DNA of 64,000 bases from Octopus vulgaris (lineage: Eukaryota). Both the position numbers and the translations under genes were made by a program. A model generated the notes under the pieces. The model was not told the origin of the DNA, ran no database searches, and worked only from the letters and a program-made list of their open reading frames with translations. Of the stretch, positions 12,261 to 35,969 are shown piece by piece (positions within the stretch are counted from its first letter, which is position 1; each line of letters opens with the position of its first letter). The stretch covers positions 29,574,001 through 29,638,000 of the forward strand of contig OX597842.1 of NCBI GenBank assembly GCA_951406725.2, read 5' to 3'.

Positions 12261-12344
12261 ATGGATGTAAATAAGATTATAAGCAACATTCTGGGTGGGG
12301 ACTTTGAAGATGTCAAACAACTTATCAAAGAAAATCCTGAAACA
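12261..12344 (+). CDS. Coding exon 1 (MDVNKIISNILGGDFEDVKQLIKENPET), N-terminal capping ankyrin-like helix pair
   Basis: Pyrimidine tract and AG at 12257-12258, ATG at 12261, donor GTAAGT at 12345; GDFEDVKQLI resembles ankyrin helix 2. Confidence 0.65.
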
Positions 12345-15300
12345 GTAAGTTCACTTTATATTGCTTCTTCAATGTTAAATGTTTGTTTATTATTTTATAC
12401 ACAATATTAAATGTTCCTAAATAACCAGATATATTTGTCCATAATATTTCATTTCTTTCTTTACCTCTTTCCTCTAATCCTCATCATTGTCACTTTTTAT
12501 AAATATTCAACCAGACAATGAGGTATGCCAGAATTGATGGAATGTGAGTGAGAGAGAAACCCATCCTCACACACTGCAATGGAGTATTCTGGCAGGAAAT
12601 ATTCAGTCCAAGAGATGGGGGACAGATGGATCCTATAGATAAATGGTGACTTTGTCAAGAAATTCTCTTGCCATACACAGTTGAAGGTTTTACCGATGTC
12701 AAGGGCTACACTATTTCTTTTGCAGAAGTTGTCAAACATAACCAAAACATAGGAATCAGACCCCTGCTTGAAACGGCTTTATGGAACTGTTCTGGGGCTC
12801 ATTGAATAGAGAAAGATACCCAAAGGGACAAAGATGATGGTTGTTTATGACTTTTTACTTCATAATTGAAATATTGGAAGTTAGAATGACTGGCTGGTAG
12901 TCAGCAGATAGGACACTATCAGCAAGAATTATAAAACAGGGCTTCTCTAAGAGAGTAATGCTACCCTTGGGTAGGGATTGCGAAGAATTTTATAAGGACC
13001 AGAGAGCCAAGGTGGTACAAATATATGAAACTCAATGTGTAGTTGAGTTTGGATCAGAGAACCATCATGGTTAGGGAGTGGTGGGTGGAATGATTCTGTA
13101 AAATCTATAGAGATACTCTTGGTAAGAGACCAGAAAATGAGGCTTTAATTTGGAAGGGAAGACAGCTGACAAATGGTGAAATGCAGAAAAAACATCCTTT
13201 ATTTTCTTGATGACCATCATACATGTATTTCAATGGTGGGTGAATGTCTGCCAGTTAGTGAGGGTAGGTGTTTTCCTCAAGGAGAAGTCGATAGTGTTGT
13301 TTGTACAGCTGTAATACAGTTGTGTATGAACCACTCACACCTTCTTACATATTGTATGGCTACAAACTAATGTAAGCCCTGATACTGCTGCCGCATTTAG
13401 GCTCAAAATTCTGATCACTACTTTCATAATATTTCTTATTTTCTCCATTGTTTCTTTTCATTTGTGTCTACTTTTCCATAGCTGCTCATATTTAGTTGTG
13501 ATTGGTGTCGTTCCAAAGATGTCACAGATGTCTAATTACAAGTAATTACTTTGTAATAGATTCAGTGACTAACATAAATAGATTTTCAATCTTTTCCTTG
13601 AGCTTATGCATGAACTAAACAGTCTTTCTAAGCCTTTTCCAACCTTGATTTACCTGTGCTCTACACCTTTCTTGTAGATTTGCTTTCATTCTTTTCCAAG
13701 TAGATCCCACGTTGCTGTTTCACCAGACATATGACATCTGAAGATCCATGCTTCATTTCAAACATCCTGTTCTTCTCTCACCATTTCTTAAATCTCCTTC
13801 ATCATTATAGCATTAAATAAAAGTGCTACTATGCCAGACATCAGTGATAACACAGTGTAGAATTTCATGAGCTTTACCAGGGAATACTAAACTAAAATCT
13901 CTCTCCTTTGATATATTTTATATATCTTCTCTTTCTTCTCTTCAGGTCAACCAAATAGATTCTGACAGAAAACTTTCTTAATGGCAGCTTGTGAACAGGG
14001 CAGCACAAGTCTAATAGCCTTCTTGATAGAATCTGGAGCCAATATGGACATGAGTGACAAAGCAGGTCTGACCGCATTACATTATGCTGTGATTAGGTAA
14101 GGCTTGAATTAACTAAAATCTTCAGATCTGCTTTTGTTTTGAAATATTTTGCAATTCCAGACTATTTGAATATCCAAAGATACCATAATAGTGGCAGTGT
14201 GACACGATAACAGCATGATAGTAGTAACCAAATAACATCTTTTTCTCATTTTCTCCATGAATCCTCTTCATTGAATCACCAAAATCTTTTTCGTTATTTG
14301 TTGTCAAAACAGATTATTTTTGTTTTGGAGATATTCTTTGAGATCCAACAGTTCTTAAGATTGACCCAATGTGATTCAGTGTCTTCTCTTCATATTGATT
14401 ATGGAGAGATCGATCAATTTTTCTCCAAAGAAAATGTTATTTGAGATCTAAAGCAACAAGAAAGATTCTCAAGCTTGTTTTTGCAGTAAATAATCTGTAA
14501 ATTTCTTACAGAAATTATTTCTCACCTCCATCAGCAACTCAACACATTTTGAGATCTATTATATTTTGAATTGTGCTTTATAAGGTCATCTCTGGACAAT
14601 AAAACATGTTTTGAAGTTCTTGTTAGTTTCTATAGCTTCTGCAGTCACAAATTGTTCCAGAATTTTGCACAAACACACACACACCATCATCGTCATCGAA
14701 TGTTCCTTTTCCATGCTGGCATGGGTAGGAGGGTTTGATAGGAACAGACAAGTCAGAAGACCACACCAAACACTACTGTCTGCTTAGGTTTGGTTTCTAT
14801 GGCTGGACGACCTTCCTAACACCAACCACTTTGCAGAGTGTACTGGATGCCTTTTACATGCCATCAGAACCAGTGAGGTCACCAATTAATTGCGAGACAA
14901 AGACCTCTCGACTGGTTGAGGTGGTGGGGTGGGGGAGCTAATATTGCTGGAGAGAAAGGTGTCTTGCATTAGAAGAGGGACATGGCTCCTTCAGATGGAG
15001 AAGACAGAGGAGGGAAACACTAGGTTAATATCTTGTGTTTGGCCCAAGCAAAGAAAAAGGAAAAAATAGTGCAATAGGTGTGAAACAACATGTAGTAAAC
15101 GAATACTCTTACTCTTTTACTTGTTTCAGTCATTTGACTGCGGCCATGCTGGAGCACCGCCTTTAATCGAGCAACTCGACCCCGGGACTTATTCTTGTAA
15201 GCCCAGTACTTATTCTATCAGTCTCTTTTGCTGAACCACTAAGTGACAGGGACATAAACACACCAGCATCGGTTGTCAAGCAATGCTAGGGGGACACAGA

Positions 15301-15655
15301 CACACAAACACACACGCACACATATATATATATACATATATACGACGAGCTTCTTTCAGTTTCCGTCTACCAAATCCACTCATAAGGCTTTGGTCGGCCT
15401 GAGGTTATAGTAGAAGACACTTGCCCAAGGTGCCACGCAGTGGGACTGAACCTGGAACCATGTGGCTGGTAAGCAAGCTACTTATCAAACAGCCACTCCT
15501 GCGCCTATGGAAAAAAAAATATGGCGAACGGAGGTGGGGAGACGACTCGGAAATTCAAATCTCACCACTTCCCCATTCGTCGGCGATCCTATGACCGCGA
15601 GTCCACTGCCCTAACCACTGGGCCATTGCGCCTCCACTCTATATCTATATATATC

Positions 15656-15729
<74 letters not shown>

Positions 15730-15999
15730 TATTTAAAATAATAATAATAATAATAATAAATATTAGGGAATAAATCCAAATTTACAGGGAAAAATCAGAC
15801 TTAGGATTGAATCCAATTTTATAGTAAAATATTATATTATATTAAATTAGAGACAAAACCACTATTAGACAAATCAAACAAAGAAAGACTTAAGCCAATA
15901 CATAAAATAATTTATATAAATTAAAATTTAACAATTATAATAATAATAATAATAAGTCTTTCTTTGTTTTGATTTGCATAATAGTGGATTTGTCTCTAA

Positions 16000-16052
<53 letters not shown>

Positions 16053-18358
16053 AATATATGATAAATAAGGGTGTGTTTATATATTCATTTATGTGTGTTA
16101 TATGACCGCCATACTTCCTTGTTGGTCACTGTTTCTTTTGGCGGTAAAAATACGTCTCGTTGCCCTTAACAACAAACTTTCTCTTGCATAGTCTGTTGCT
16201 ATGACAACATTACATTTGCAGACGTAGTTTTCCCGCCAATTACGACGTGCTGTTGTTGTTGTTGTTTTTTTAGATTGATGAGAAATCTGCTATCAATTAG
16301 TTTGTCTATAATTTTCAGACATTCCATCTTTCGCAAAAGGATTACAATACATTTTTCAATGTATACCAAATATGTAGATACTAACAACGGTACTTAATCC
16401 TTGTTTTGTATTGTACACTCGCTGGGATAAAAATATTTATACTTTATACCCTCACCTATTAATATGTGTATACACACACACGTACACATTTGTTTACTGT
16501 GTATTAACGATTATACGTATTTCAGTGGCTCATATTACTCTGTCTGTCTTTCTCTCTATATACATACATATATATATACATACACATACATGCATATATA
16601 TATATATAAATATATATATACATACACATATACACCTATATAATATTATTGACTTTGACATTTCAACTAGCGAAATATACATACATATATGTATGTATGT
16701 GGGTGTATATATGTATGTATATATATATATATAGGCATACTTACACAACTGGGCCCCCACGACGAATTTGTTTCCTTATAACTTTTAGACAGATGGATAT
16801 CTTTTGATGAAATTTCTATGACAAAAATGCTTCAGATGATGAAGATTCCAATTATATTGGAATTTGTTGTGAAAACAAATTTTCAAACGTTGAGAAGTTG
16901 ACTTAAATCCTTATAGAAACTTTCAGAAAAATGGATATTTTGTTTGTGTGAAAATTTCTACAAATCCCTTTCAAATGGATTAGATTAGGATTATATCGGA
17001 ATTTAACATGAAAAAACGTTAAATATTTGGTGGATACACACACATATATACTGACACACATCACGGTTATTTTTCCAAAGTTCATCTTTTCAGTTTCTGA
17101 TGTGTATCAGTGTATATCTCTGCGAATCCACCAAGTTTTTAAATTTTTCTTCATATTAAATTCCGATATAAGTGGAATCTTCACCATCTGAAACGGTTTT
17201 ATTGAAAATTTCATTAGAAAATATTTATTTTTTTGGAAAGAAAGCCGACTCGGGCGAACTTTCCCAAATTTCTCTCTGCACCCACTAAAAATTTTTTCTC
17301 ACAATAAATTCCAATATAATTGGAATCTTCGCCTTCTGAAGCATATTTTTGAAAGAAATTTCATTAAAAAATATCCATTTTTCTAGAAGTTACAGGGAAA
17401 CAAATTCGTCGGGGGAGCACACTTGTGTAGTTATGTCTATACAGGCATGCACGCACACAGACATATATATATATATATACACACGCGGCTGTAATATATA
17501 TATATAGGTTTTTATGCGTTTAATTGAACACGAGTGTATATTTAATGTAATTGTTAAGTGAATGTCTGTGATGTTTTATGTTTTTTCTTCCTTTCAGCCG
17601 TAAAATTGATGCTGTGGCCTCCTTAGTTTCCAGGGGAGCAAATGTTAATAAGCAGGACTCATGGGGCAACACACCTCTACATTGGGCTGTGTGGAACAAC
17701 TATGAAGATGTAGTCAAAGTCCTGTTAAGTAGCAAAGGAAATAACACTTTACAGGTTAGCGAATACAATTATATTTGTGTATATAGATATGTATATATAT
17801 GTATGTGTGTGTTATATGTATATGATGTATACATACAGTTTAGTGCCCCAAATTTCGTTTCTTCATAACTGATGATCCATATTATTTTAAATAAAACTTG
17901 CTGCAAGACTTCCTTTTCTACCCCACAAAAAAACTCACCCTTTCTTTAAATTTTTTTCCCCGACACAAATCCCGCTTTTCGGTTAAGGGAAATACGAATC
18001 TGCAAAAAAATTGGCAAAAATCGGCATTTTTAAATTACCCCCACCCCCATTTCCTTCATTCTTTACTTTTTTCACAATTTTTTTTTTTCAGAATTTGCGG
18101 AAAAATACGGAGATGATGATTCGGACAAAAATTTCAAAACATTTCTGTAGTTGGGGTTGGGGAAAAAAAGTCAAAGTTGAAGAATTTTGGAGGGGGTGGA
18201 AATTCCACTGCCGATTTTTTGGCAATTTTCCCGAACCTCCGAGTCCGAAATCGGGGTGTTTTGGCAAAAAAATTCTTTGAATAAGCAAATTTAGGTGAAA
18301 ATGGTGGTGGTGGTGGTGGGGGGACTCTTTTGAAAGTTGCTCATTTCCTTGTGTGAGA

Positions 18359-18395
<37 letters not shown>

Positions 18396-18401
18396 AGAGT
18401 G

Positions 18402-18432: not shown

Positions 18433-20913
18433 ATATATATATGTGTGTGTGTCTGTGGGTACAGGTATATGAACCTCATTTATTTACTCCTCTCCAAATT
18501 CATTCCACCTGTTTATTAATCTGATTCTTTCTCTTTTTTTGAAATTTTTCATTTTTGCGATGCCCCCCCCCCCATCCACTTGACGCCATCTTTAATGTCT
18601 TTATTGTTTATCTTTTTTAGGTCACTCAGCGAAATAATAAAGGTTGGACACCTCTCCATCTTGCCTCGTATTATGGACACACAGACACAGCTAAACTTCT
18701 CCTACAACAAGATGGCGCTGATGTGAGGGTGGTGGACAACGCTGGTTGGACACCTCTACATCATGCCTCGTATAATGGACACACAGACACAGCTAAACTT
18801 CTCCTACAACAAGATGGCACTGATGTGAGGGTGGTGGACAACGCTGGTTGGACACCTCTACATCATGCCTCGTATAATGGACACACAGACACAGCTAAAC
18901 TTCTCCTACAACAAGATGGCACTGATGTGAGGGTGGTGGACAACGCTGGTTGGACACCTCTACATCATGCCTCGTATAATGGACACACAGACACAGCTAA
19001 ACTTCTCCTACAACAAGATGGCACTGATGTGAGGGTGGTGACCAAATATGGTTCGACACCTCTCCATCTTGCCTGTCAGAATGGACACACAGACACAGCT
19101 AAACTTCTCCTACAACAAGATGGCACTGATGTGAGGGTGGTGACCAAATATGGTTGGACACCTCTACATCTTGCCTGTCAGAATGGACACACAGACACAG
19201 CTAAACTTCTCCTACAACAAGATGGCACTGATGTGAGGGTGGTGACCAAATATGGTTCGACACCTCTCCATCTTGCCTCACGTAATGGACACACAGACAC
19301 AGCTAAACTTCTCCTACAACAAGATGGCACTGATGTGAGGGTGGTGACCAAAGCTGGTTGGACACCTCTCCATCTTGCCTCTAATCAAGGACACACAGAC
19401 ACAGCTAAACTTCTCCTACAACAAATGGCACTGATGTGAGGGTGGTGACCAACGATGGTTGCACACCTCTCCATCTTGCCTGTCAGAATGGACACACAGA
19501 CACAGCTAAACTTCTCCTACAACAAAATGGCATCGATGCCAATAAAGTGGACAATGATGGTGACACTCCTCTCCATCTGGCAGTTCAAAAGTAAGTCCCC
19601 AATGGATTTGGATTATCCAAATCTGTTTCTTTAATGTTTTCAATAACGTTTGTTTTCTTGTTTTGAGTCATTCATGTCATAATCCCACCATGGGACGTCG
19701 TGCTTCAACTCTCTCTCTCACACTCTAATGACACTGTAACCTACTTCATTAATTAATCATCATAATTATTATTGTTGCTGTTGTTACCTGACTAGATTCT
19801 TTACTTCATCTCATCCTTCGTTACCTCAACGTTACAAGTTCAAATCTTTCCTTTTCTTCTTTTCATTCCATATAAAACACCTCACCCCCTCTCTCTTGTA
19901 ATTTTCCTCTTTCCTCTGACCCTGGGCTAAATACAGAATCATTCCCTTACAGTGTTTAGTTTGATCTGTTTATGTTCCAAGTTCAAATCCTGCCAGAGTA
20001 TTTATTAACAACCTGGAGTGAAAATCTGTACCAGTAATATCCAGGGGTTCATTTAATAAATTGTCCTCCCTCTTTTGTCTTGTTTTTGTGTCTGATTGCT
20101 GTTGGGCAAAATACCTTGTGGTATTTATTTACCACACTTTATGTTCAGAGTTCAAATCCTGCTGAGGTCACCTTGTCCTTCCATCTTTGCTAGGCTAATA
20201 AAATACAATACCAGTCATGTACTGGGGTCCTTATAATCCACATTAATGCCTCTCCCCATCCTAAATTTCATGGCTATATAACAGTTGTTCATCATACCAT
20301 ATATAGATTGCCGTGTTTACTCAGGTGTGTATATATATCGTTGATCTATAATGTAGAGAGTATATCGAATATACGAGGGGGTACCCAAAAGTGGCCGGAA
20401 ACGCTTCTGTAGGGCAAGGCCATTGAAGTTCAGGCTTCTGCTGCTGGAAGCCACTTGATGCGATACTCAGGCATCAGCCTACCAAGCGGCATCTTTGAGG
20501 ATGGTGCTGTTACCATGTGGTGCATCTTTGTTTTGTAGGGCTTCTCCCCTGTTCGAGTTTTGCAATGGCTGAAATGAAGGATCAGCTTGCTTCCATGAAA
20601 TTCTGTTTTCTGCTGGAGAAAACTGCAGCCAAAACAGTTGTCATGCTTCAAACAGTTTACGAGGACACTGCCATGATGCCACGAGCAAAACACAAGATCA
20701 CGAGTGGTTTTCATGCTTTTCAAATGGTCACTTGTCACTTGAGGTCCAACCTCATTCAGGGCAGTTCCAGCACTGCTACAAATAGTGGGAAACATGTCTG
20801 GGTCGATGCATTGCTTCAAATGGGGACTACTTTGACGGTGATAATAGTGTTAATACGTAAAACTAAGCAAAGAAAATAATATTGCAAAATTCTGGGTCCT
20901 TCTTGGTCCCCAC

Positions 20914-20954
<41 letters not shown>

Positions 20955-21574
20955 GGGTAAAATCATAAATGATTTTTACCAAGTGGTCAGCGCGGAAATA
21001 TAACCTCACAGGTAAATTTTTATAAACATTTTATAATTATATACATAATTATAACAAGGGCTTGGCTTGCTCCTCACCACGCACTGAAAAATAGACGTCA
21101 AAAGACACTATTACCACCATTAATTCCGAGGAAAACACAGTACGTGTGTTATAATCTTTATATATAAAAGTCAAGTTGTGTGTCTGTCTCCTACCCTTTA
21201 GATTCCTAACTACTCCCACATTTTGCGGTGCAGTGTAATCAAAAGTGGGTATCTTATAGTCGTGATTCATATTGAGCCGTTCTGGGTATTAGCGCGCGTC
21301 GATGATGAGTCTACGATTTAAAAAAAAATTTACCATCATTTTTTTCGATTTTAATGCATTTTTTTCGCTATTATATAAGGGAAGTAACTCTCTAAAAATG
21401 TCTACGATGAGTCAATGGTTTTTAAAAAATTTACCATTATTTTTTTTCCATTTTTAATGCATTTTTGCTATTTTTTGGCTATAACTCTCTAAAAATGCTT
21501 ATATAGTTATTTCCCTTACAAACCCGAGCAATGCCGGGCGATACTGCTAGTTATGTATATAAGTATAAAATGTT

Positions 21575-21609
<35 letters not shown>

Positions 21610-21911
21610 ATGTAGGATCCAAGGATTGAGATATAGGAAGGTGAGCTTCAAACAATCCATAGAAAATGTAAGAAACAACTTTTAGGAACAAAAGGGGTTT
21701 ATTGGGGTGCAAGGTTGTTGGTTTTTCCCTTACTGCATCTTCTGTGTTTGAACATGTGCCTCCTATTGACAGTGTAAACTTCATTTAATCAAGACACCCT
21801 TGGTCTGAAGAGTAGCCTGTGGTATACACCTCGTTTGGATATTTACCAGTTCTGATGTTCCACCTGCTTTGAAACATATGTAGCCCAGATTTTATCTACT
21901 CCATTCCTTAA

Positions 21912-21966
<55 letters not shown>

Positions 21967-24798
21967 GTATAATGTATATTTGTGTGCATGTAATTATTGA
22001 TGTAATTAGGTTATAATGACCTAATTACATTTGTTTTCATTGGTTAATCTAATAATAATAATTGTTTTTCCTCTCCTCTTTGTATAACTTTCAGGCAACA
22101 CTATGGTGTGGTATCGTTGATGCTGGCCCAGGTTAGTTAACAAATACATATTATATCCTCGCTCTAGTATTCAATATTTATATTATCAAAATACCAGTGA
22201 AATTCTGGGGGTAGATTTAATCAACTGCACTGCAGCAGCCTTTAATTAGCAGAATCTTGGGTCTGTGAAGAATAATTATGTTGGTAATAACAATGATGAT
22301 AGTAGTCGTGGTGATGACAGTCCAACTGACCACCACTGCTGATAGTACTATCTTTAATGGTCAGACAAACAAGATCATTATGAATTCGACCCATATATAT
22401 CAGATTATATATATCATCATCAACCACTCTGCCATATGCCCGTGGGCATATGGCATAGTGGTTAATAGTACGGGCTACTAACCCCAAGATTCCGAGTTCA
22501 GTTACAGGCCGTGACTTGAATAATAATAATAATAATAATATTCATAATAATAATACCATTGAAAAATACCTTTGAATGAGAACATAGGTTCGAAATTTCC
22601 TCAAGACACCTGACAAAGGCTGGAGGGTATATCAGCCGAAACATTGTGTTAACAACAAACAAGATGAGGACAAATATCCATCAAATGTAAATAATGTAAA
22701 TAATGATGATGATCATCTTTTAATGTCTGTCTCTCATGTTGTGTGTGTGTGTGTGTTATGTGTAAATTGTTGGTGTCTGCATTTTATCTTGTGTCCAATA
22801 ATTTATTTGGCTTCTTGGCTGCTTTTTTCCCTCTGCACATATGTAAAAATGTGTGTGTATATATGTATATATATATATATATGTATACCCAGAAAGAGAG
22901 TTACTCTTGTCAGACACATTGCACACTCAGATTATGCAGCAGAGATAAGTTAAAGGTCCTTGTCCCCAGCAACAAAGCTAAATGAGGGCATGCTGCAATC
23001 AGTCCCTATTGCTTCGTTAATCCATTATCATCAGTACATGATGCATCAACTTCCCTTCTCTTCTCTCCCTGCCTAACTCAACGGATTAACTACCCTTACT
23101 GTATTTGTCTACCTAACTTATTTACCTGTATTTGTATTAACATGGCTTTGCATGAATGCCGGGATGCAACACCCTCCACTGTTGGTGGTGACAAAACCTG
23201 ATTAACTCCTCTTTATAGGTATCCATACTAACACCTCTGTGCTAATGCCAGCACAACACCCACGTCCAGTGGTGTTAGCAAGCGTTACATGAATGATGCA
23301 GGATTAAATACAATGACATGCTGGCAGGAAAATGCTAATAACAACCTTTTCAGATGCTGATAGCTGCAGCCAATGTAGACAGCACTGTCGATGTAAGCAC
23401 ATGCAACAAGTATCTCGTCTTATGCGCGCCTCCCCCAAAACTGCCCCTACAAGGTCTGTCAAATGAACTGAAGGGCTGCTTCTATGACACTCTTCTGCTG
23501 GCCACTTCAAAGTTAAATGACCGTGACCTTCGTGGCTGGTGATTTCAATGGACGTGTTGGGCGGCACCCAGGTATCTTCCATGGGGTACATGGTGGGACA
23601 CAGAATTGTGGGAACAAAACCATAGCCACTATGTACCCCATGGAAGCCCCCTGCATGTTGTTCAACGTGCCCATTGAAATCGCCAGCCACAAAGAGAAGG
23701 TCCCTGTCATTCATTGACGAGGTAGTCTGCAAGAGGGTGTCATAAAATCAGTCTTTCTCTTCATCAGGTAGCCCTGGCTGAGGGTCATAAGCCAAGATAA
23801 TGGTTGCTAATCCTTGTTGCAGCACTAATCTAAACTTAAGTATTCTATCACAGACTCTGACTATCTCGATTACCTTATCAGCCCATTTCTCTGACTCCAT
23901 CAGTGTCCCCTACCCAGAAAATCTTATACTTATGTTCTTTGCCTGTGAAGAACCTAGCAGAACTTCTTCTCCACCTTGGATGCAGCACAAATCTACACGT
24001 CTCTTTTCAAGCATGTTAACAATCTCACCAGACCTACCTTTCAGTGTGCCGACGTTGAGAGTACTAACCCTGAGGGTGTTGAAGGTATGGGTCCATGAGA
24101 CCCTGGGATGGGGGACAGCGGCATCATGTACCTGAAAAGAAAGCTTGCATTTGGCAGAACCCATAAACATACAATAGTCTTAAACCTGCAAACACTACAC
24201 CATCATTTTATGCACTACATCATCACTACATTACATAGGAGATAAACCCTATATATATAAATATATGTATTTTTTAATAATATATTATTATTATTAATAT
24301 AAGTAAATCAATATGGAATTTTTCACAAAGATATACCCATTTGAAACACCATTTTACAATTTTAATTCAAATTTTTATATAAAAATATCATTCCATACAT
24401 TATTCAATATTCATATTTTATATCTCTGAAGAGGAGAAGGGTTGTCTATAAGTGCTTATCAACATAGGACTTTATTATAGGGTCAACCCTTTTGCGAAAT
24501 GATCGTAAGATGCTTAAAACTTAATTCAAAACTTTTAAACTTTCAAATTTATTTTATACATCATATTTATATTTTTTAATATTTATTTATTTATTTATAT
24601 ACATTTTTAATACATAAAGTCTTTCATATGGGTATATCTTTGTGAAAAATTCGATATTGATTTCCTTATATTAATAATAATAATATATTATTAAAAAATA
24701 TATGTATATATCGCTCATATTAAATATATAAATACTTTAATAGTATTAATATTATTTTATACAATGGAACACTTAATAAAAATTCAGTATATAATATT

Positions 24799-24837
<39 letters not shown>

Positions 24838-27800
24838 TGTATCACCAATTATTATGACACAATACTGTTTACACTATAACCTTGTAGTAACAATAAAACA
24901 TATTACGGATCAGGGTAACAACAACAATCCATACACAAACCAACAAACAATGAAAACAACACCTTACGACTTCCTGCAATTAACACCTACTCTCTCTGGT
25001 CTCTCACTCAGACTGCTACTATTCATAGTCGTTCAGTCAAGTCTGTTCTTGCATGGGTTCTTGTGACTCTCGCCACAACATGTAATCGAGTCCAGGACTT
25101 ATTCTTTATAAGCCTAGTACTTATTCTGTTGATCCTTTTTGCCAAATCGCTAGCTTACAGGGATGTAAACACACCAGCATCGATTGTTAAGCAATGTTGG
25201 GAGGACAAACACAGACACACAGACACACACATATACGATGGGCTTCTTTCAGTTTTTGTCTACCAAATCCACTCACAAGGCTTTGGCCATCCCGAGATGA
25301 TAGTACAAGACACTTGCTCAAGGTGCTATGCAGTGGGACTGAACCCGGAATCATGTAGTTGGTAAGCAAGCTATTTACCATAGCCACTCCTGTATGTATA
25401 TATATATGTGTAAATATATCTATATATATATATATATGTTTGTGTGTATCTCACTTCCATAACATTCATGTATATGTGTGTGTATGTACAGGAATGTTAA
25501 GGATGTGGACACTAACCAACTCACCTGTTTTATGAACCCCTTATTAATATAGCAACATCATAATTCTTCTTTACTAGTTTTGATCTGCTAATTATATGTT
25601 CACTCTTGTTCTGCTCCCCTAAAATTTACTATAGTGAGAGATAAATATAGATTAGGATGAAACAATCTGTTTAAGACCTCTTAATAGATTAATCATGTCC
25701 CTTACACATATCCCATGTACATTTTCAATTTCTATTTTTACTTCCACAAAGGATTCAGTGAAACTGGATATTGGGAATCATATGAAAATAACACCATTGA
25801 TGGAAGCCGTGTCCAGGGCCCACCTCGGAATAATCCATAAACTTATTATACATGGTGCAAACATAAATGCTGTCGACAATGATGGCAATAATTGTTTGCA
25901 CCTCTCAATAATAAAGAAAGAGATGTTCCATTCTGAGGTGGAACCCATTCCCATTTTAGATGAGGTAAGTTTTTAAAATTGTTTGTGAATATGTGTGTGT
26001 GGTTGGCATTAGGAAGGGCATGCAACCGCAGAGACTATGCCAAAACTGGCAATTGGTGCCTGAGCAGCTCTGCAGCTGCCCAGCTTCTGCCAAACTATCC
26101 AACCCATGCCAGCATAGAAAACGAATGTAAAATGATGATGAGGAGGATGTGTGTATGTGTGAGTGAGAGAAAGAGAGAAACAGGCAGACATTGTTTGCTA
26201 TTTTCTTTCACTCCCATCCACTTCTCTTCCTTTAGTATTAAATAATTCAGTTTCTCCTGATAGCACTAGTTGTATTATGTAACTAACAATATTCCATCTT
26301 CTTTCACCTTCAAAAGCATGGCCACTCCACTGTAAAGAAGGTAACCCGTCTTAATTATGTGTCATGTAAACACTGCCATCACTGTATGAAGGAGAGGTGA
26401 CCAACGACAGAGATAAGTCTTTAAATTTAAGAAAGAGAAATTCACAAACTGTTTTAAATATCGAACTTGAAGTTAAACGAGTTGAACTGTGTTAATTGCT
26501 AGAAAGCATATTTCATTATTCTTTTTCAAAGAAAGGAAAAGGAAAATAAATTCGTTTTAAGGACAATTAAATTTAAAGAAAATATATTCATGGACTTCGA
26601 AGAAAGTTTCTTTTATCAGTATGATAATGAATATATAACTGAGATTATTCAAAGTTGATAATTAGGGTTCCAAATATTGCCAGAGCTTGGACTTTATGTC
26701 TATATTGACTACAGTAATACCCCTTGCAATGATTGTAATGAAGGGAGATGTGATGAGAATGAATTTACATTAAGATGTGTGCACAAAATTGTAATGCCAC
26801 GAGATTGTATGTATGACGATGTAACTAGACAGATAGTCATAGAGGCCCTTTGTTACCAACAAAGATAGAAGCTCTCTGAACTTTGCCCTGCTTAATCTTA
26901 TTCTAGCAACTATGCTCTTGGCGCATCCACCTCCACTACTGACTTGATTACCTAGATAACAGTAGCTATCAACTACTTCTAGGTGCATATATATATATGT
27001 GTGGGGGTGCGTGTGTTTGTTTGTTTGTTTGAAAGACCTCAGCATCTATCCACTGCTAGATCTGATGGTGTTTATTGTCTGTTGTTGCAGAATTTAAGCA
27101 ACTCTTTGATTCCCAAATATGTAACGGTCACTACAGATGTGTGACTGTATTTCAGACAGTTGATGGTCACCTATGTATTGTTGTAATGTCTTCTTTGGTG
27201 AGAAGAAGCTACTCGAGAAGTCAACGACCCATTATTATAGGTATTGTCTATGAGACTAACAGTTTCAACAATTTCTTGACTATAATGTGTTGGTGTGTTG
27301 CCTCAACCACCACACCAATCTTTACTTCACTTCATCAGCCAAAAATGTTTCTTTATAAATTTTGGAAACATTATTGATATGCTTGGATATGTCTGTCTGG
27401 TGTTGGTTTTGTTGCTGTGTCTGAAGAAATTATTATGTTCTTGGTGTTCTCTGTTCATCGTTTGTTGTTATGGAAATGAGTTGCACTTTGTGACCAGTGA
27501 AACGTTTCCCAATCAATATTTGGATTATCGAAATTACCAGTAGGAAAATATGGGTGACTGCTTTCATAGATGCAGATCTGAAGATGTCAAAAATCTGAGT
27601 TTTGATGGCAGTTTTGCAGATGGTAAACAAATTCAAGTAGGAGTATATATGTTGTTAAAAAAATACTTCTTGTTGCGACCAGTTAAAATCTCCACAAGGA
27701 ATTACAGAAAATCTTGAGTGACCATAGACCATCAGACGACCCCCATGGTAATTAGAATGGCCTTTGTGTAACAAAATGTAGCTTGCCATTGTTTGTTGTT

Positions 27801-30800
27801 ATGTTGTTGTGTTATATTTATATATACAATACTCTTCCATAAGTATTTCTTTTGTTATGGCCAGTTGGCTTTATCAAGCCTGTTGTAAAGATAGGTTCTT
27901 GTTGGTTTGTTGCGTTCTGTTATTTGTGATACTTATTCCATTATATTTCCTACATTTGACATGATTTGTTTATCTACAATATATATTTGTGTAATATTCT
28001 ACTGATCGTTTTATATTTCATCATTTGCAGTGCTGCAGAGAGCTCCAACTGGACATGGATAGGAGGCTCTCTGGAATAGTAGTTTTGAGTTACCTTGCCA
28101 GCCAAGGAGCCAGCTTATACCATCATAATAATAAGAAAGTGACTCCATTGGACTACATAGAAAATCAACATTTGAAAGAAAAATTAAAAACATTTTTACA
28201 ATCACTGTAAGTATTCACTGGCAACGACAAGATAAACCAGGACATTTTCTCTTTTGTATATAATCATGTTTATATGTTTATTTAGTTTGAATTCTCCCAA
28301 TGTATTATTCCGTCATTAGTGTCTTGACTCAAGACAACAATAATGATTTCCAATTCTGGCACAAGGCCAGCAAGGTCAGGGAGGGGATAAGTCAATTACA
28401 ACAGCCCCAGTTTTCAACTGGTACTTATTTTATCAACAGCAAGGTAGAGTCAACCACAGCTGAATTTGAACTCAGCATGTAAAAGCAGACGAAATGCCAG
28501 AAAGCATTTTGCTCCGTGTGCTAATGATTCTGCCAGCTTGCAGCCTTAAGACCACACAACAATAATAAGAACAATAAACAGAAAATACAGTTGTTAGTGG
28601 ATCAAACGAAAAACACGATTTTGATGACATTCACATGATTGCTTGTGTTGACAGATATACCTCACCATCCACCCCTGACTATTTTAGAGTTTGGTGACCT
28701 CCATGAAAATGTAGTACTAAATAATAAAGTGAATGAACACATTTTGAAATTGCTATTTAGAAGTAAATAGGATTTATCTGTCTACCAACAATTTTTTTCT
28801 CTCTCTCTTCTCTGACTCAATCAGTTGTCATGTACGCTTTCATGTGAAAATAACCTAAAACACACACTAACAATGTGTATGTCATCATCATCATCATCAT
28901 CATCATTTAACGTCTGTTGTCCATACTGGCATGGATTGGACTGTTTGACTGGGATGGCATGTTGGAAGGTTGCACCTTAGTCAGCCTTTGATATTTTCAG
29001 CCCACCCTTGTATGTGTATGTTAATGTATACACACAAATCTGCTTGTATGTAATTGTTTACAGAAGAATTTACGATGTACTCTTGCTGGTTACTGTTGTG
29101 CCCCTTAATATTCTGTACTCTAAACATGTCCACAACGAAATATTTTATTATAAATGAATGTTAATGATGGGATGTGTTAATATTTTGTTCCACAGGTGTT
29201 GGTTTTGTCAAGAGAAAAAGGCTACTGTCACACTCCATCCATGTCAACATACTGTTATTTGTCAGAATTGCTGTTCTCAAATGACATTTAAGCAATGCCC
29301 CATATGTCGACAACACATACTCCGGAAAAGTGGATTTGGTAAGAACATTCTTTCTTGATCTGTCTGTTGTCTCATTAACTTTCTGGTATGGAATAATGCA
29401 TTTCATATTGTAGTGGAGACATGCAACTCCTTGTTTGTAACTATATATTATTAACACTTGTTATAATGTTTGCCATCCTTTTAGACATTTTATACTCACA
29501 CTCGTTAGTTTTTAGATGTGATTAATGCTAAAAGAGACATTGTTTTCTGACTCTTTCACCTTTTGGCTTTACTTTTGAGTTGATTCGTTTTAATTCAAAC
29601 ATGAAGCCTGGTCATTGCTCCAAGGTGGTATCAGAAAGTTCACGGACTAGTTCTGTAGCATGCCAACAGATGGCAGCACACCGTTGCGTGCACAGTGAGA
29701 GCTAGCAATGACTTTCATGAGGCGGTGTACTGGGTGACACCACTGCGTTTACTTCAAAAGTTGTGAAATTTGTGCTTTTGTGGTCATTTGTAGGCTGTAG
29801 TCTGCAATTTTCTAATGGGCAGGAACAAATAACCAATGTGAAATTTTGCGTTAAACTTGTCCAGCAAAGACATAAGAAAGAAACAACAAAACTAAGAGAA
29901 AAAGAGTGTTATGAAGTGATAACTAAGTGAGAGAATTTCAGAATTGTTAGATTAGTATATAGGATGTCTTAAGAGAAAGATGAGATTTAGAAAGGTTTGC
30001 CTATTTTGTTGTGGTTCTAAATATTGAACTATTATATAGTAACAGCTTAGAAAGTGTTGACCGAAAGCATAGTGGTCACCAATTGACTATTGATGATATG
30101 AATGCCTTACAAAAATGGAATATAGATTATTAAAAGAGACAAAGAAATTTTACTATGAAGTATAAAACTTTGAAATGCTTATTTCAGTGTGTCCAAAGTT
30201 TGAAGAGAAAGCAGTCCAGGCGGTTGTAGAGTCTGTTGGTAAGTATAAAATAACTGTAATTGATTTCTATAAATTTTACCTTCACCTGAAATATATTATT
30301 TGTGTGAATGACTGTGAACAGGTTCCATTCTTAATTTCCAATTCTTATTTCAGTGTGTCCAAAGTCTGAAGAGAAAGCAGTCCAGGCAGTTGTAGAGTCT
30401 GTTGGTAAGTATAAAATAACTGTAATTGATTTCTATAAATTTTACCTTCACCTGAAATTTATTATTTGTGTGAATGACTGAGAACAGGTTCCATTCTTAA
30501 TTTCCAATTCTTATTTCAGTGTGTCCAAAGTCTGAAGAGAAAGCGGTCCAGACGGTTGCAGAATCTTTTGGTGAGTATAAAATAACTGTTACTGATTTCT
30601 ATAAATTTTACCTTCACCTGAAATATATTATTTGTGTGAATGACTGAGAACAGGTTCCATTCTTAATTTCCAATTCTTATTTCAGTGTGTCCAAAGTCTG
30701 AAGAGAAAGCGGTCCAGACGGTTGCAGAATCTTTTGGTGAGTATAAAATAACTGTTACTGATTTCTATAAATTTTACCTTCACCTGAAATATATTATTTG

Positions 30801-33800
30801 TGTGAATGACTGAGAACAGGTTCCATTCTTAATTTCCAATTCTTATTTCAGTGTGTCCAAAGTCTGAAGAGAAAGCGGTCCAGACGGTTGCAGAATCTTT
30901 TGGTGAGTATAAAATAACTGTTACTGATTTCTATAAATTTTACCTTCACCTGAAAGATATTATTTGTGTGAATGACTGAGAACAGGTTCCATTCTTAATT
31001 TCCAATTCTTATTTCAGTGTGTCCAAAGTCTGAAGAGAAAGCGGTCCAGACGGTTGCAGAATCTTTTGGTGAGTATAAAATAACTGTAACTGATTTCTAT
31101 AAATTTTACCTTCACCTGAAATATATTATTTGTGTGAATGACTGAGAACAAGTTCCATTCTTACATTTCTTTCAAATGGATAGCGATAAAAGTAATTCTA
31201 TTCACTACCTACAAATGCAAGAATATACAATAAAGGGATTTTTATCGAAATATGGAATCATGAGACATAGGAAAAAGGTCCCTCACGATAAGGAAAATAT
31301 AGAAAAAAAGATAAAATATAAATCCTGCAGCGATTCTCTCCCCATAATGAGACACATTCACTTTTCTCTCATCTCATTGTTTTCTATATCACCACCTTGA
31401 TTATATATTCTTGAATATCATTTCTTATATACCATTTCAGATATTTTTCCTTTGCAACAATTGGTGTATGAACATTTGTGTTTCATTTAAGATGTTTTGT
31501 GCAAGTATACAGTTTTAGGATACTTGTTATCACTTTCTGTTTTACCTGTGTAGAACTAATCATTGCTCATCAGGAAAGGAAACTATTTCATTAAGGAGTC
31601 TTTAGATATTTCCTGAATCAGATGAAATTCTGGTGAACTGTGAGTTGCATAGTTTAAAATTAAAGATTAAAAGCAGCAACGTTTGACAAAGATAACAGGT
31701 GTGACATGAGTTTGTGTCAAGGTCGTTGATGACCAGCTTGGTTGACATCAGAATTAAGCAAAAGAAGAGGGGAATGTTGATTAGTGAAGTCCAGTGGTGA
31801 GGGGACAATGCCATGTCATTGGTTTAGCATGGATATAAGAGAGAAGAAAGATAAAAGGTGTTAACATGTGATCATTAAATAAGATGATTGCAACATTGTT
31901 AGATTAAGTAGGCTGTCTTAATAGAAAAAGGAGGCTTAGGAAGGTCAGTCTATTTTATTATGGGCCTAAATATTGAGCCATTATATAGGACCACGGTAGA
32001 AAGTATAAAACTATCAACCAAACCTTTAGTGGTCAGCAGTTGTCCATTGATGATAGGAATGTCTTACAATAATAAAATATAAACCATTAACAGAGATCGG
32101 GAAATTGTGCTATGAAGTGTAAAATTTGGAAATATTTATTTCAGATTCTGTAATGGTAGAGGAGAAGCATCTTCATTGGGTGTCCAGAAGCTTGGCAGGT
32201 AAATGGCAGGAACTTGGTGAGTATAAAATACCCAATTAATTTCTATAAATTTTGCTTTCAGCTAAGCTTTTGTTTGTTTGAATGACTGAGAACCGGTTCC
32301 ATTCCTAATTTCCAATTGAAAGTTTAGCTATAAAGTAAAGCTATCACTGAAATTTCATAAAATATCTACGGACGTCAGCACGGTTGTAAAATGAATAAAT
32401 TAGAAGGTCCAGTAGAGTTAATACTATCGTTTGTAAAAGGGGACTCGAAAATATTGTCATTTAAGAGTAAACAGGTGAATTAATGACAATGTTTTTGCTT
32501 GTTTACACTTTTAGTAATTTTACTGGTAGGTTGAGGCAGATATCTCCCTTAATCTGGCAGAATTAAGGGGAAAGGGTTCCAGATGTGCCATCATGTTTTC
32601 TCTTGGGTGAAGAGGACCACATTATCAAGTGTAACCTTTTTAAAATGAGAGTGTGCATTGTGTGGGACATGTTGTCATCTCTCCCCTGGCCAGTCTGTTT
32701 TTCTATATTTATTGTAATTCTTTAGTCCCAGGTCAACATATATTTCCTGTCTCTATAGAAGACAGGCCCCATTGTCGATTGTGTTCATGGCTGGATTGAA
32801 CTCAGCATTGTAAGTTAATGAAACACTCATTTATATTAGAAAAAAAGAATCTCAACAGAAAATTCAAACTCAACTCAATTTTGTTCTCAATTGAAATCAT
32901 TTCACTCTCCTTTACATTACAAATGTCACATGGAAAGGCATGAACATCACAATATCCCATTTCCCCTTGTCTGACAGTTTAACAACATAAAATATCATTT
33001 ATACTATTATTTACAGCAATGCCCCTCTTATTTACAGCAATGTCTTCTACCTCCCTATGGTACCTATATACATCTAGATAGACTGCAGCATAGAGAAATG
33101 TCTTTACAAGTACTTTTGAGCTATACTGGGGACTAGACTTGACTCAAGAGATCATGATAATATCCCCTGAGTCAGCTGATATAAATCATCATCATCATCA
33201 TTTGACATCCATTTTCCATGCTGGTATGAGTTGGATGGTTTGACTGAAGTCTGGAGAGCCAATGGCTGCACCAGGCTCCAATCTGATCTGGCAGTGTTTC
33301 TACAGCTGGATGCCCTTCTTAGTGCCAAACGCTCCGAGTGAGTAGTGGGTGCTTTTTATGTGCCGCCAGCATGGAAGTCAGTCAGGTGGTCCTGGCATCA
33401 GTCATGTTTGGATGGTCCTTTTTACGTGCCACCAGCACATGGAGTCAGTCAGATCACACTGGCATTCACCACATTCAGATGATGGCTTTCATGTGCCACC
33501 AGAACGGGGGCTAGTCAGGGGGCACTGGCCACAGCTGCAATTTTGGTTTTACTTGACTCAACAGGTCTTCTCAAGCATATCATATCACCCAATGCATCGA
33601 GGGTGCTCTTAAATGGGCCGGACATGCAACACTGGCATTGGCCATGGCTACGATCTCATTTTAGTTGCCGGGTTTTCTCAATCACAGCATATTTCTCAAA
33701 TCTTGGTCTCCTGTCATTGCCCCTGTGAGGCCCAATGTTCGAAGGCCATGCTTCATCATCTCATCCCATGTCTTCCTGGATATACCTCTTCCACAGGTTC

Positions 33801-35969
33801 CTTCTACAGTTAGGAAGTGGCACTTCTTCACACAGTTGTCCTCATCCATACGTAACACATGACCATACCAGCGTAGTCATCTCTCTTGCACACCATGTTT
33901 AATGCTTCTCATGTCCAACATGTCCTCAGCAGTCATGGCCCATGTTTCACTGCCATGTAGCATGGAAGTTCGCACTCAGAAATGATTTATCTAAATTAAG
34001 AAAGGACATCATCTACAACATTGCCAGCTTGCTATATGTCTGGGAGTCATACAAGATGTACCAGTCATATACTGGGCAAAAATCAATCCACTAACACCAG
34101 GTCCATTATCATCATCCCCTTACATCCATTTTTCTAAGTTTGTAATGGTCAGACGACTTTTCCCAGAGTCGTTGTGGTCCTTTGTCAGGTTTGATTGCTT
34201 GTTTCCTTCAACTTGATTTCCAGGCATTTCTTTATCCAAATTTCATCCTCCATGTCCCTTCTATATCTATACCATTATCTTTTTTCTTGTACACTATCAC
34301 AGATTTTTCAACACATTAACATTACACATTTAGTGATGTGTGCTCATCTCATTTCCTGCCAGTTTCCATGCATCCTCCACATTCCATGTAACATTGCAAT
34401 TTCTCCTTCATTTGGAAACAGAATCCCTTAGTTGCCAGTAGACCTAACAGCTCCCTGTACATTTTTCATCTCATTTTCCTTCTAACTACTGTGCTTTCAG
34501 AATAGTCTCCTCCACTTCTAATTCTGTCTCTTAGGTCACAGAAACTATCAACTATGACTTTATTACTTGTACCTACTACAAACTTATCCTGTATATCTGC
34601 TACTTACAAAGTCCTTCCCTAACCTTAACCGGCCTTTCCTGTAAACTTGCTTGTTTGTGGATGCAGTAATTCTTTCAGGACCCAAGTGTTGTAGGTGTAT
34701 GGCGTAGATGTTGGTGATTCTTGTCTTATTGCCTACAAACTAAAACTCTTCTCATTGCTAAGGCCTCTCCTGTATTAAATACTTTGAAATTGTGGCCTTG
34801 ATCTAGTGAAAGAAGTTCTTGTTATAAGTCATGAATCCAAAAACCTTAAGCCAGTGCCCTCTATAATATGTGATATTTACCTAACAGTATTTTATTTTTA
34901 CTTTCTGTGGTTGAAATCATTTAGGTTCACAATCCCCATTTTTGAAATATTTTTAAATGTTGATAATTTTGAAATTTCTATTAATCATAGGTGGAAAGAC
35001 ATCACAAATGACTATTTCAGGCATTGATCACAGGGTGTTATCAAACGACTGCGATTGTATTCCTCCAAAGAGTCTCTGGAGTAACGTTACTCAACAAGGT
35101 GTGCAGGCTGGAGATTTGGGGTCTCTCCAGGTCAAGCGACTGCTTCTCTGCATTGAGAATTCACAGCTCCAGTACTCCTGGCATGTGATTAAAATGTCAT
35201 AGAAAAGAACCATAAGAGGGATTCTTCAAGCTGAGCCAACCGACAGGAGACCTAGGGGTAGAGCAAGAATGAGATGGTTGGATGATATCCATAGTTTCAA
35301 TTGGTCATGTTTGGAAATCTTTTCAGAACTTCTAATGAAGGTTGCTTCTGATAGAATTGCATGAAGGAGGTGCCTGAAGACTCTACCCCTAAAACTCTCC
35401 TATGAATAGAGCCCAGAGAAGATGGACAGATGGATAAAATTATCTAACTATTGGTGGTCTTTGTTGATTCTTTAGGCTCTCATACACTTCTTCTGCCAGT
35501 TGTTCACCAGGCATTTTCTCTTGTGTAATTTTCAATTAATTTTTTTTAAATATTCTTCTTCTTCTCCAGCCTTTTTTTCAAATTCTTTGCTATTTTTATC
35601 AACATCTTTAGAAATAGATAACAATGTCTTCTAATTTCCCTGTTTCTTAAGTATCTCTCACTCTTCTATTCACATAATTTCTTAGTCGTAATTAATACAG
35701 GTTTTATATTATCATTAATGCTGTTGCAATTATTTCTTATTTCTTTTGCAGGAAGGGAATTAGGAATTAAACAACATGACCTGGACATCATCAAGCTTGA
35801 CCATTCTCATAGCGTTAGGGAACAAAGTTTCCAGATGCTTCTGACATGGTTTCAAAGTTGTGATCCGGCAAAACGTACACTTCAAATATTAAAAGAAGCT
35901 CTTGAAAGAACTGAATGTTTTATTGCAATTGAATGTTTATCATCAGAATTCAATCGAATTTCTTTGTAA
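12261..35969 (+). CDS. Multi-exon gene encoding ankyrin repeats (with a hypervariable tandem array), C3HC4 RING, 6 mini-exon repeats and a death domain; Mind-bomb-like ANK-RING module; two 1-nt frameshifts as assembled
   Basis: 16 exons joined at GT-AG sites with matching phases: 12261-12344, 13946-14096, 17598-17754, 18621-19590, 22095-22131, 25752-25964, 28031-28206, 29196-29338, six 51-nt exons in 30188-31068, 32145-32216, 35752-35969. Total 2529 nt (842 aa plus stop) if one nt is restored at ~13970 and one at ~19424. Confidence 0.85.
12500..12745 (-). mobile_element. LINE RT fragment
   Basis: VALDIGKTFNCVWQ and INSGIP, decayed LD.SKAFD.VWH and SGVPQG motifs. Confidence 0.7.
13946..14096 (+). 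CDS. Exon 2, ankyrin repeats (VNQIDSDRK/TFLMAACEQGSTSLIAFLIESGANMDMSDKAGLTALHYAVI), with a -1 frameshift
   Basis: TTCAG acceptor and AG|GTAAGG donor; clear ankyrin motifs; reading through needs A5 where A4 is present (13969-13972). Confidence 0.8.
15105..15505 (-). mobile_element. tRNA-derived SINE family A, full length; other copies at 10217-10309(+), 25085-25391(-), 48472-48830(+), 51267-51400(+), 51643-52002(+), 54797-55203(-)
   Basis: Shared head GGCGCAGGAGTGGCTGTGTGGTAAG...GGTTCAGTCCC (A/B-box-like), internal (TA)/(TG) tract and tail CCAGCATGGCCGCAGTCAAATGACTGAAACAAGTAAAAGAG. Confidence 0.85.
15835..16010. repeat. AT-rich inverted repeat, ~58-bp arms
   Basis: ATTAAATTAGAGACAAAACCACTATT...AAGACTTA versus TAAGTCTT...AATAGTGGATTTGTCTCTAATTTAAT. 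Confidence 0.75.
16734..17437. mobile_element. TA-flanked MITE with long imperfect TIRs
   Basis: GGCATACTTACACAA...CGACGAATTTGTTTCC versus GGAAACAAATTCGTCG...TTGTGTAGTTATGTC. Confidence 0.75.
17598..17754 (+). CDS. Exon 3, ankyrin repeat (RKIDAVASLVSRGANVNKQDSWGNTPLHWAVWNNYEDVVKVLL)
   Basis: TTTCAG acceptor, CAG|GTTAG donor, canonical GANVN..D..G.TPLH motif; phase 2 in, phase 0 out. Confidence 0.9.
18621..19590 (+). CDS. Exon 4, tandem array of ~9.5 34-aa ankyrin repeats
   Basis: TTTTAG acceptor, AA|GTAAGT donor; ORF 18723-19439; ten TPLH motifs at 102-bp spacing; -1 frameshift at 19423-19425. Confidence 0.95.
18633..19590 (+). repeat. Coding tandem repeat, 102-bp unit
   Basis: Units start at 18633, 18735, 18837, 18939, 19041, 19143, 19245, 19347, 19448 and 19550 (partial); units 2-4 identical. 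Confidence 0.95.
20372..20919 (+). mobile_element. Internally deleted mariner element
   Basis: TACGAGGGGGTACCCAAAA left end and CACCTCATA right end; N-terminal MKFCFLLEKTAAKTVVMLQTVYED and C-terminal CIASNGDYFDGD transposase remnants. Confidence 0.8.
21155..21550 (+). mobile_element. Non-autonomous Helitron
   Basis: A|TCTTTATATATAAAAG 5' end; CCCGAGCAATGCCGGG hairpin then CTAG|T 3' end. Confidence 0.8.
22095..22131 (+). CDS. Exon 5, 37 nt (KQHYGVVSLMLAQ), completes the last ankyrin repeat of the array
   Basis: TTTCAG acceptor, CAG|GTTAGT donor; bridges phase 2 of exon 4 to phase 0 of exon 6. Confidence 0.75.
22444..22700 (+). mobile_element. tRNA-derived SINE-like element with a degenerate hammerhead-like 3' part
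   Basis: A box TGGCATAGTGG at 22451, degenerate B box near 22494, (AAT)n, then ACAC-CTGACAAA-GGCTG..CAGCC-GAAACATT-GTGT. Confidence 0.55.
23440..24170 (-). mobile_element. RTE-clade LINE AP-endonuclease fragments (- strand 23620-24170; inverted + strand piece 23440-23600)
   Basis: LRVSTLNVGTLKGRSGEIVNMLEKRRVDLCCIQ; FVAGDFNG motif on both strands. Confidence 0.8.
24265..24702. repeat. AT-rich inverted repeat (~80-90 bp arms) enclosing a hammerhead motif
   Basis: ATTTTTCACAAAGATATACCCAT versus ATGGGTATATCTTTGTGAAAAAT and flanking complementary AT-rich sequence. Confidence 0.8.
24422..24511 (+). ncRNA. Minimal type I hammerhead ribozyme motif, intronic and sense to the gene
   Basis: ATCT-CTGAAGA(24426)-G..AAGGGTTG/CAACCCTT..C-GAAAT-GATC-GTA-AGAT. 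Confidence 0.65.
25752..25964 (+). CDS. Exon 6, ankyrin repeats (ITPLMEAVSRAHLGIIHKLIIHGANINAVDNDGNNCLHL)
   Basis: Within ORF 25695-25976; AAG acceptor, GAG|GTAAGT donor; 213 nt. Confidence 0.9.
28031..28206 (+). CDS. Exon 7, terminal ankyrin resembling Mind bomb (LSYLASQGASLYHHNNKKVTPLDYI)
   Basis: TTGCAG acceptor, CT|GTAAGT donor; resembles the MIB-type last ankyrin motif FLA..GA.L...N..G..PLD (from recall). Confidence 0.85.
29196..29338 (+). CDS. Exon 8, C3HC4 RING finger (CWFC...PCQH...CQNC...CPICR), MIB/IAP type
   Basis: All 8 zinc ligands present; CACAG acceptor, G|GTAAG donor. Confidence 0.92.
29620..29860 (+). mobile_element. Mariner 5' fragment
   Basis: CAAGGTGGTATCAGAAAGTTC TIR-like start; decayed EQ..NVKFCVKL. 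Confidence 0.5.
30178..31163 (+). repeat. 166-bp tandem repeat, 6 units (exon plus intron)
   Basis: Exon starts spaced exactly 166 bp apart; units 3-6 near-identical. Confidence 0.95.
30188..31068 (+). CDS. Six symmetric (phase 1-1) 51-nt mini-exons: 30188-30238, 30354-30404, 30520-30570, 30686-30736, 30852-30902, 31018-31068
   Basis: Each has an ATTTCAG acceptor and a G|GTAAGT or G|GTGAGT donor; encode VCPKFEEKAVQAVVESV, VCPKSEEKAVQAVVESV and 4x VCPKSEEKAVQTVAESF; 115-nt introns. Confidence 0.75.
32145..32216 (+). CDS. Death-domain exon A (DSVMVEEKHLHWVSRSLAGKWQELG)
   Basis: ATTTCAG acceptor, G|GTGAGT donor, phase 1-1; L..V...L...W..L death-domain helix 1-2 pattern. Confidence 0.8.
33185..33980 (-). 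mobile_element. RTE LINE 3' end fragment; shorter copies at 1981-2230, 14690-14890, 26000-26140 and 28880-28980
   Basis: Decayed HGSETWA and LRWYGHV.RMDE on - strand; shared tail CCAACCCATGCCAGCATGGAAA plus (GAT)n. Confidence 0.75.
35752..35969 (+). CDS. Terminal exon, rest of the death domain (RELGIKQHDLDIIKLDHSHSVREQSFQMLLTWFQ...LKEALER...*)
   Basis: TTGCAG acceptor; LG.....I..I.......EQ..QML..W death-domain signature; TAA ending at 35969. Confidence 0.9.

Follow-up and report, generated by a model that had tools for sequence, protein, structure and literature searches.

The locus examined here raises the question of what kind of protein is made when ankyrin (ANK) repeats, a RING finger and a death domain (DD) are joined in one octopus gene. 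It lies in a 64-kb stretch of the 2.80-Gb Octopus vulgaris assembly (contig C29:29574001-29638000), referred to below as the window; coordinates given without a contig name are positions in it. A first-pass annotation had proposed a sensor, an E3 ligase and a signalling adaptor in a single protein. We find that the gene is one of at least 64 loci of a family derived from Mind bomb 2 (MIB2), in which variation is concentrated on the ankyrin surface. The reading we favour, with a probability of about one half, is that the family encodes DD adaptors for variable ligands.

Structure of the gene

The gene runs on the + strand from an ATG at 12261 to a stop at 35969 and comprises 16 coding exons with AG/GT ends and compatible end phases. 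The upstream exon holds an in-frame stop ahead of the ATG. The Pfam scan of the window exons identified Ank in five exon pieces, a zf-C3HC4_3 match spanning 29197-29337 (E 3e-11) and a Death match spanning 35754-35966 (E 1.3e-6), in agreement with the single C3HC4 RING and the C-terminal DD recognised at first pass. Likewise, the estimate of about 15 ankyrin repeats is close to the 16 ankyrin-type motifs counted here, and the repeat linker is made up of six 51-nt phase-1 exons within an array of 6.0 copies with a 166-bp period. The description of the exons as phase-consistent stands as far as their ends are concerned; however, exons 2 and 4 are each one base short, which breaks the frame. The exons are as follows.

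5523..5615 (+), start approximate: 5' untranslated exon, spliced to exon 1; its 3' end, with a GT donor, is matched by a loose end before 12256 in run X9
12259..12344 (+): exon 1, ATG 12261, N-cap helix of the ankyrin array; 90-98% identity in 5/5 paralogs fetched
13946..14096 (+): exon 2, carrying two ankyrin motifs and lacking one base near 13968; Pfam Ank; phase 0-2 as in the MIB2 exon
17598..17754 (+): exon 3, ankyrin; Pfam Ank; 157 nt, matching the MIB2 exon in length and phase
18621..19590 (+): exon 4, ten ankyrin motifs arranged as a tandem array of 102-nt units whose surface codons vary, lacking one base near 19425; Pfam Ank
22095..22131 (+): 37-nt exon linking the array to the last ankyrins; joint 19590-22095 in reads
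25752..25964 (+): MIB2-type ankyrin exon; Pfam Ank; joint to 28031
28031..28206 (+): final ankyrin exon, atypical and of MIB type; 176 nt, equal to its MIB2 counterpart in length and phase; no Pfam match alone
29196..29338 (+): exon for the C3HC4 RING, an ortholog of MIB2 RING1 with CPICR at its end; Pfam; joint from 28206
30188..31068 (+): six 51-nt linker exons starting at 30188, 30354, 30520, 30686, 30852 and 31018; tandem array, the last four encoding K-A-V-Q-T
32145..32216 (+): first DD exon (helix 1-2); joints 31068-32145 and 32216-35752; aligns to the RIPK1 DD via P0003
35752..35969 (+): second DD exon and stop; Pfam Death

An open stretch at 12901-13071, which by eye resembled a MIB repeat, was rejected: it has no Pfam match and is surrounded by stops. 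The 209-aa protein P0001, labelled Octopus vulgaris, is 100% identical to the DD exon of the window; this public model of the locus skips the RING.

Joining of the exons in transcripts

Four RNA-type runs from three studies were used. Contigs were matched at 90% likeness, so they may stem from paralogs, and the RNA type of the runs is a guess, judged by GT-AG joints not present in two DNA-type runs. Three GT-AG joints were found in 4/4 RNA-type runs: 25964-28031 (last ankyrins), 28206-29196 (ANK to RING) and 32216-35752 (between the two DD exons). The RING-to-linker joint was seen in 3/4 runs, with a matching loose end in the fourth, and that from the linker to the first DD exon (31068-32145) in 3/4. 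Joint 19590-22095 was present in 2/2 RNA-type and 0/2 DNA-type runs, while loose ends point to two further connections, the 5' exon (near 5615) with exon 1 and exon 3 with exon 4. Junction support of the kind anticipated at first pass is thus at hand, and the concern that RING or DD exons might not be spliced to the ankyrin exons does not hold, the exons being joined in the family.

Independent support for a single mRNA comes from intronless dead copies on contig C1, in which the last ankyrins, a decayed RING, the linker and the DD lie inside approximately 900 nt. The same domain plan is found in P0188, an intact public model of 726 aa. Public models from O. sinensis differ from each other by single 17-aa linker exons; linker exons are alternatively included.

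A multi-copy family in Octopus

Genome searches returned at least 135 matches for the DD exon, at least 116 for the last ankyrin exon and at least 61 for the RING exon. Ordered same-strand matches form 48 ANK-RING-DD units, and a Pfam RING search adds 16 with divergent RINGs, bringing the family to at least 64 loci, located mostly on contigs C29 and C31. Another 32 ANK-DD units are still without a RING match, 11 of them being processed copies on C1. The architecture presented as unusual is therefore not unique to the window, nor is the gene a conserved single-copy one. Among the homologues listed, 28/120 combine Ank, RING and Death, and all 28 are labelled Octopus; O. vulgaris, O. sinensis and O. 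bimaculoides occur among the 20 representatives named. No three-domain protein of squid, cuttlefish or any other non-Octopus source was among the homologues listed, a weak negative since the searches scored only part of the candidates. Labels attached to the homologues include "MIB2-like", "ankyrin-3-like" and "secG-like", so that the mislabelling foreseen at first pass is borne out, or worse. Present annotation names conceal the family.

At C29:29.70-29.73 Mb, a neighbouring locus (L029-L032) is 96-99% identical to the window gene from exon 1 to the RING and 68-73% identical in the DD exons. From this combination of high and low identity, 5' and DD modules appear to have been swapped between paralogs. 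The paralog at C29:29.20 Mb (L037-L040) carries a duplicated exon 3-exon 4 block. The copies on C1 form tandem arrays of intronless, stop-riddled 3' halves at C1:216.93-216.96 Mb and C1:102.72-102.73 Mb (L124, L125), with a period of about 3.6 kb in L124; these are processed pseudogenes amplified afterwards. P0134, a 278-aa model that combines pieces of RING, DD-like and LRR type, is either a further shuffle or a mis-joined model.

Origin from Mind bomb 2

The true octopus MIB2 lies on contig C26 and has two MIB_HERC2 matches; none of the 10 genome matches to this domain is on C29. Seven consecutive MIB2 exons match the phases of the window exons from exon 2 to the RING (0-2, 2-0, 0-2, 2-0, 0-0, 0-2, 2-1), and 2 of the 7 pairs are identical in length (157 and 176 nt); for this comparison the fourth exon and the beginning of the seventh were placed by direct reading of the sequence. 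Beyond the shared exons, MIB2 continues to RING2 and the window gene to the linker and DD exons, with no match to a second RING downstream within the window. The shared phases and lengths establish that the family derived from MIB2, losing the MZM/REP N-terminus and having RING2 replaced by DD exons. The first-pass suggestion of a lineage-specific Mind bomb derivative is thus supported. In addition, the ankyrin portion of MIB1 (8v0e) was the top natural fold match in a Foldseek search with the structure model of P0004; the search used the three-domain model, and its results are dominated by ankyrins and uninformative on the DD.

Like MIB1 and MIB2, the octopus proteins have an ankyrin array that ends in atypical MIB repeats and is followed by RING1. 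They differ in having no MZM (MIB_HERC2-ZZ-MIB_HERC2)/REP substrate module, no coiled coil and no catalytic last RING, and in possessing a DD, a modular linker and a variable repeat array within one exon, encoded by at least 64 loci as opposed to one. Genes of ANK-RING1-RING2 type occur at C20:45.04-45.06 Mb, C27:36.36 Mb and C30:3.17 Mb, on contigs with no MIB_HERC2 match; they may be intermediates on the way from MIB2 to the DD family.

Variation of the ankyrin surface

To describe the variable surface, 57 unique stop-free repeat units from 10/16 loci were compared, chosen by DNA likeness alone. Repeat positions 3, 5, 13 and 14 take 7 to 9 residue states, and most helix positions are fixed. 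A further grouping used the five positions randomised in DARPin libraries. Counted pairwise among related repeats, and so indicative rather than a formal codon-model test, nonsynonymous (pN) and synonymous (pS) differences were 0.407 and 0.178 at these five positions and 0.047 and 0.096 elsewhere. Out of 169,911 sets of five positions, only 5 show as much variation as the DARPin set. A first analysis, in which framework residues were fixed in the search pattern, had given the same result. Altogether, variation is restricted to the ankyrin surface: the ankyrins earlier called variable have pN above pS at surface positions and pN below pS elsewhere. The number of repeats differs as well, from 1 to 14 units between neighbouring loci. 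In DARPins, the library positions form the binding face (PMC8683736).

The RING descends from RING1

All 45 pattern-fitting family RINGs, among the 46 of 61 RING exons fetched for comparison, score closer to MIB2 RING1 than to RING2. In a tree of 47 columns RING2 is set apart (100/100); the tree does not resolve when, or how many times, the CPxCR ending was gained. In human MIB2, a RING1 mutant keeps cFLIP ubiquitylation and a RING2 mutant abolishes it (PMC7815719); MIB1 activity and dimers rest on the coiled coil and the last RING (PMC10925295). By these human data, the working part of Mind bomb is the part replaced here. The E3 ligase of the first-pass annotation is not supported as stated, the kept RING being RING1 and not the catalytic RING of human MIB1 and MIB2, and the presence of a RING of this descent does not establish ligase activity.

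Nevertheless, some members could have regained that activity. The window RING retains all eight C3HC4 zinc ligands, aligns with cIAP RINGs and, judged from sequence, has F, F, P, I and R at the places of the MIB1 RING3 contacts with E2 (V965, M989, P993, I994 and R996; PMC10925295), including the linchpin Arg. Octopus MIB2 RING1 ends CIQCK; 33/46 family RINGs end CP[IVM]CR. We consider it possible, though we lean against it, that the RING of the window subfamily is an active ligase which gained P-I-x-R, LC8 perhaps replacing the lost coiled coil. Selection on the RING appears to be modest purifying only, pN/pS being 0.59 between clades.

The linker and the death domain

The linker exons can be aligned to the first DD exon, and the likeness extends into both of its flanking introns, which identifies them as duplicates of that exon. 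Some encode a sequence resembling the LC8-binding motif [D/S]KX[T/V/I]Q[T/V][D/E] (PMC3078936). The core [KR]x[TVI]Q[TV] occurs in 20/65 unique linker exons of the family, against a mean of 0.23 and a maximum of 3 in shuffles. A complex of octopus LC8 with residues 39-72 of P0003 was modelled at a score of 0.78 (best control 0.05), with the motif in the groove and canonical contacts; since LC8-peptide complexes have been solved many times, the score may reflect memory and shows likeness only. The score mark was reached by 51/78 solved and 2/108 mismatched pairs, peptides lying outside the calibration of the tool; runs agree in 92% of contacts, with a partner pLDDT of at least 53. The arrangement recalls multivalent LC8/DYNLL clients in its repeats of K-x-[TVI]-Q-[TV] (motif after PMC3078936), which here fall in a linker modelled at low confidence. 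It differs in that the motifs come one to an alternatively included, DD-derived exon, and positions -4 and +2 are off consensus.

In the P0004 model, helices of the DD span residues 206-294 with pLDDT of about 90, and the linker is of low confidence. The best Protein Data Bank match of the DD is the RIPK1 DD (E 9e-6), followed by ankyrin-3 (4e-5), TRADD and CRADD. Pfam, the helical bundle of the model and these matches concur that the DD proposed at first pass is real.

Two frameshifts in the window copy

Exon 2 (13946-14096) measures 151 nt, one less than the 152 nt of 3/3 close paralogs; in exon 4 (18621-19590), one unit of the 102-nt array has only 101 nt. In the assembled sequence the reading frame ends at codon 40, and no open frame leads from the ATG to the stop. 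Several features favour assembly error: all exons are free of in-frame nonsense codons, the splice sites are preserved, single-base indels also occur in paralog arrays, the O. sinensis model P0189 has an out-of-frame stretch in the equivalent exon, and 11/12 indel rows listed are letters present in contigs and missing from the assembly. In another comparison with the reads, neither frameshift site is among the 12 of 89 indel rows listed. An alignment of about 10.7 kb of flanking sequence contains 1 private one-base indel versus 28 substitutions; with such indels rare nearby, a general error rate is not favoured. For the window copy, assembly errors at both sites and a recent loss of function that made it a young pseudogene are about equally likely.

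Proposed function and alternatives

In the reading we favour, a target would be bound by the diversified face of the ankyrin array. The complex model predicts that LC8 pairs two chains by way of the linker, as it might do in cells, and the paired DDs would recruit DD partners, starting cell-death or immune signalling; it is in this sense that we infer a cell-death or immune role for the family. A number of observations weigh against it. The frame of the window copy is broken, in a region poor in private indels. Joint 22131-25752 was not seen in the runs and, among the contigs listed, none covers the whole gene. The LC8 motif is missing from 45/65 unique linker exons, including the first two of the six in the window. 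Asp takes the place of the His ligand in 14/46 RINGs, and within young clades the pN/pS of the RING lies close to 1 (0.048/0.055; 0.044/0.044). The likeness of the DD to RIPK1 is weak, near that to the ankyrin-3 DD, and too weak to name a DD partner from sequence. The limits stated above for the surface ratios, the LC8 score and the matching of contigs point the same way.

Other explanations differ in what they make of the RING. If RING1 were now an active E3, dimerised by LC8 and attaching ubiquitin either to the bound target or to the DD complex, the full sensor-ligase-adaptor would be restored. The E2-contact residues of the window RING and the prevalent CP[IVM]CR ending speak for it, but it must contend with descent from a RING that is inactive or dispensable in human MIB1/MIB2 (PMC7815719, PMC10925295), with loss of the coiled coil that drives MIB1 dimers, with modest purifying selection and with a tree that does not fix a single origin of the motif; we regard it as doubtful. 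Conversely, loss of the catalytic RING2 would suit ligase-dead decoys or scaffolds that dampen DD signalling, for instance by occupying RIPK1/FADD/TRADD-type complexes or by competing with MIB2, which in humans acts on RIPK1 and cFLIP (PMC7815719). Of 10 molluscs, Octopus has the smallest IAP expansion (PMC8917759), and another family might take that role. A pure decoy, however, has no need for a surface diversifying at its binding positions, making this alternative rather improbable. The more elaborate version of our own proposal is also unlikely: a germline repertoire of 60+ intracellular immune receptors built from MIB2, with natural DARPin-like arrays shifting in repeat number and surface, a splice-tunable LC8 zipper made from spare DD exons in place of the lost coiled coil, a revived RING1 ligase and swappable DDs as output.

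Variable recognition might also serve neural or developmental identity, or Notch-related trafficking. Octopus has other expansions, such as those of C2H2 zinc fingers and protocadherins; yet DDs are typical of immune and death pathways, and the MZM/REP part that binds Notch ligands is absent. Notch ligand trafficking is a known Mind bomb role (PMC10925295), and the family goes unmentioned in the portions of a haemocyte transcriptome paper (PMC4199593) that were consulted. On balance such a function is very unlikely. Least probable of all is a mostly neutral product of unequal crossing-over in clusters, with the window copy and many others dead: frameshifts here, indels in paralog arrays, processed pseudogene arrays and near-neutral RING ratios in young clades would fit, but framework pN is half of pS and surface pN twice pS, and the genes are spliced in 4 runs of 3 studies and kept in three Octopus species.

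Relation to known systems

Ankyrins, DAPK, NF-kB p100/p105 and ANKDD1A/B, which are conserved low-copy genes, likewise combine ankyrin repeats with a C-terminal DD. They are not known to carry a RING, and the octopus ankyrins derive from MIB2; the two groups are set apart on these features. The comparison made at first pass was right about Mind bomb kinship and omitted ANKDD1A/B and the BIR-DD-RING IAPs of oysters. The latter (BIRC11 type, PMC8917759) are also a mollusc lineage-specific expansion uniting an IAP-type RING with a DD, but they carry BIR instead of ankyrin repeats and place the DD before a C-terminal RING, whereas the octopus RING is internal and the DD terminal. With NLR, TRIM and other variable intracellular receptors the family shares a variable repeat surface coupled to a death-fold effector and encoded in large clusters, and with DARPins the placing of variation at the library positions. 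Pfam found none of the hallmarks NACHT, LRR, B-box and SPRY in P0188, and neither NACHT plus LRR nor RING-B-box-coiled coil in the window exons; the resemblance to TRIM or NLR receptors is an analogy only.

Literature searches found no paper on an ANK-RING-DD family of octopus, although orthogroup tables of octopus genomes could list the expansion; it is apparently an undescribed variant of Mind bomb. Cephalopod recognition of intracellular threats is poorly known, and a clustered, surface-diversifying DD family is a concrete candidate for it. The family is also suited to testing whether ligase activity can return to a RING that is not catalytic, and it provides a natural library of ankyrin binders.

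Other features of the window

The first intron contains a perfect 519-nt inverted repeat (7425-7943 / 8089-8607, 145-nt spacer), which arose by recent inverted duplication or is a fold-back artefact of long reads, and an open stretch matching DUF7041 (9530-10000, +, E 1.6e-25), likely a retroelement remnant. Downstream of the gene lies a 494-aa reverse transcriptase frame (RVT_1; 39236-40720, +), followed by more element-like fragments (44188-45745, -). A C2H2 zinc-finger array at 60477-61365 (-) is read in two overlapping frames, suggesting another possible single-base break.

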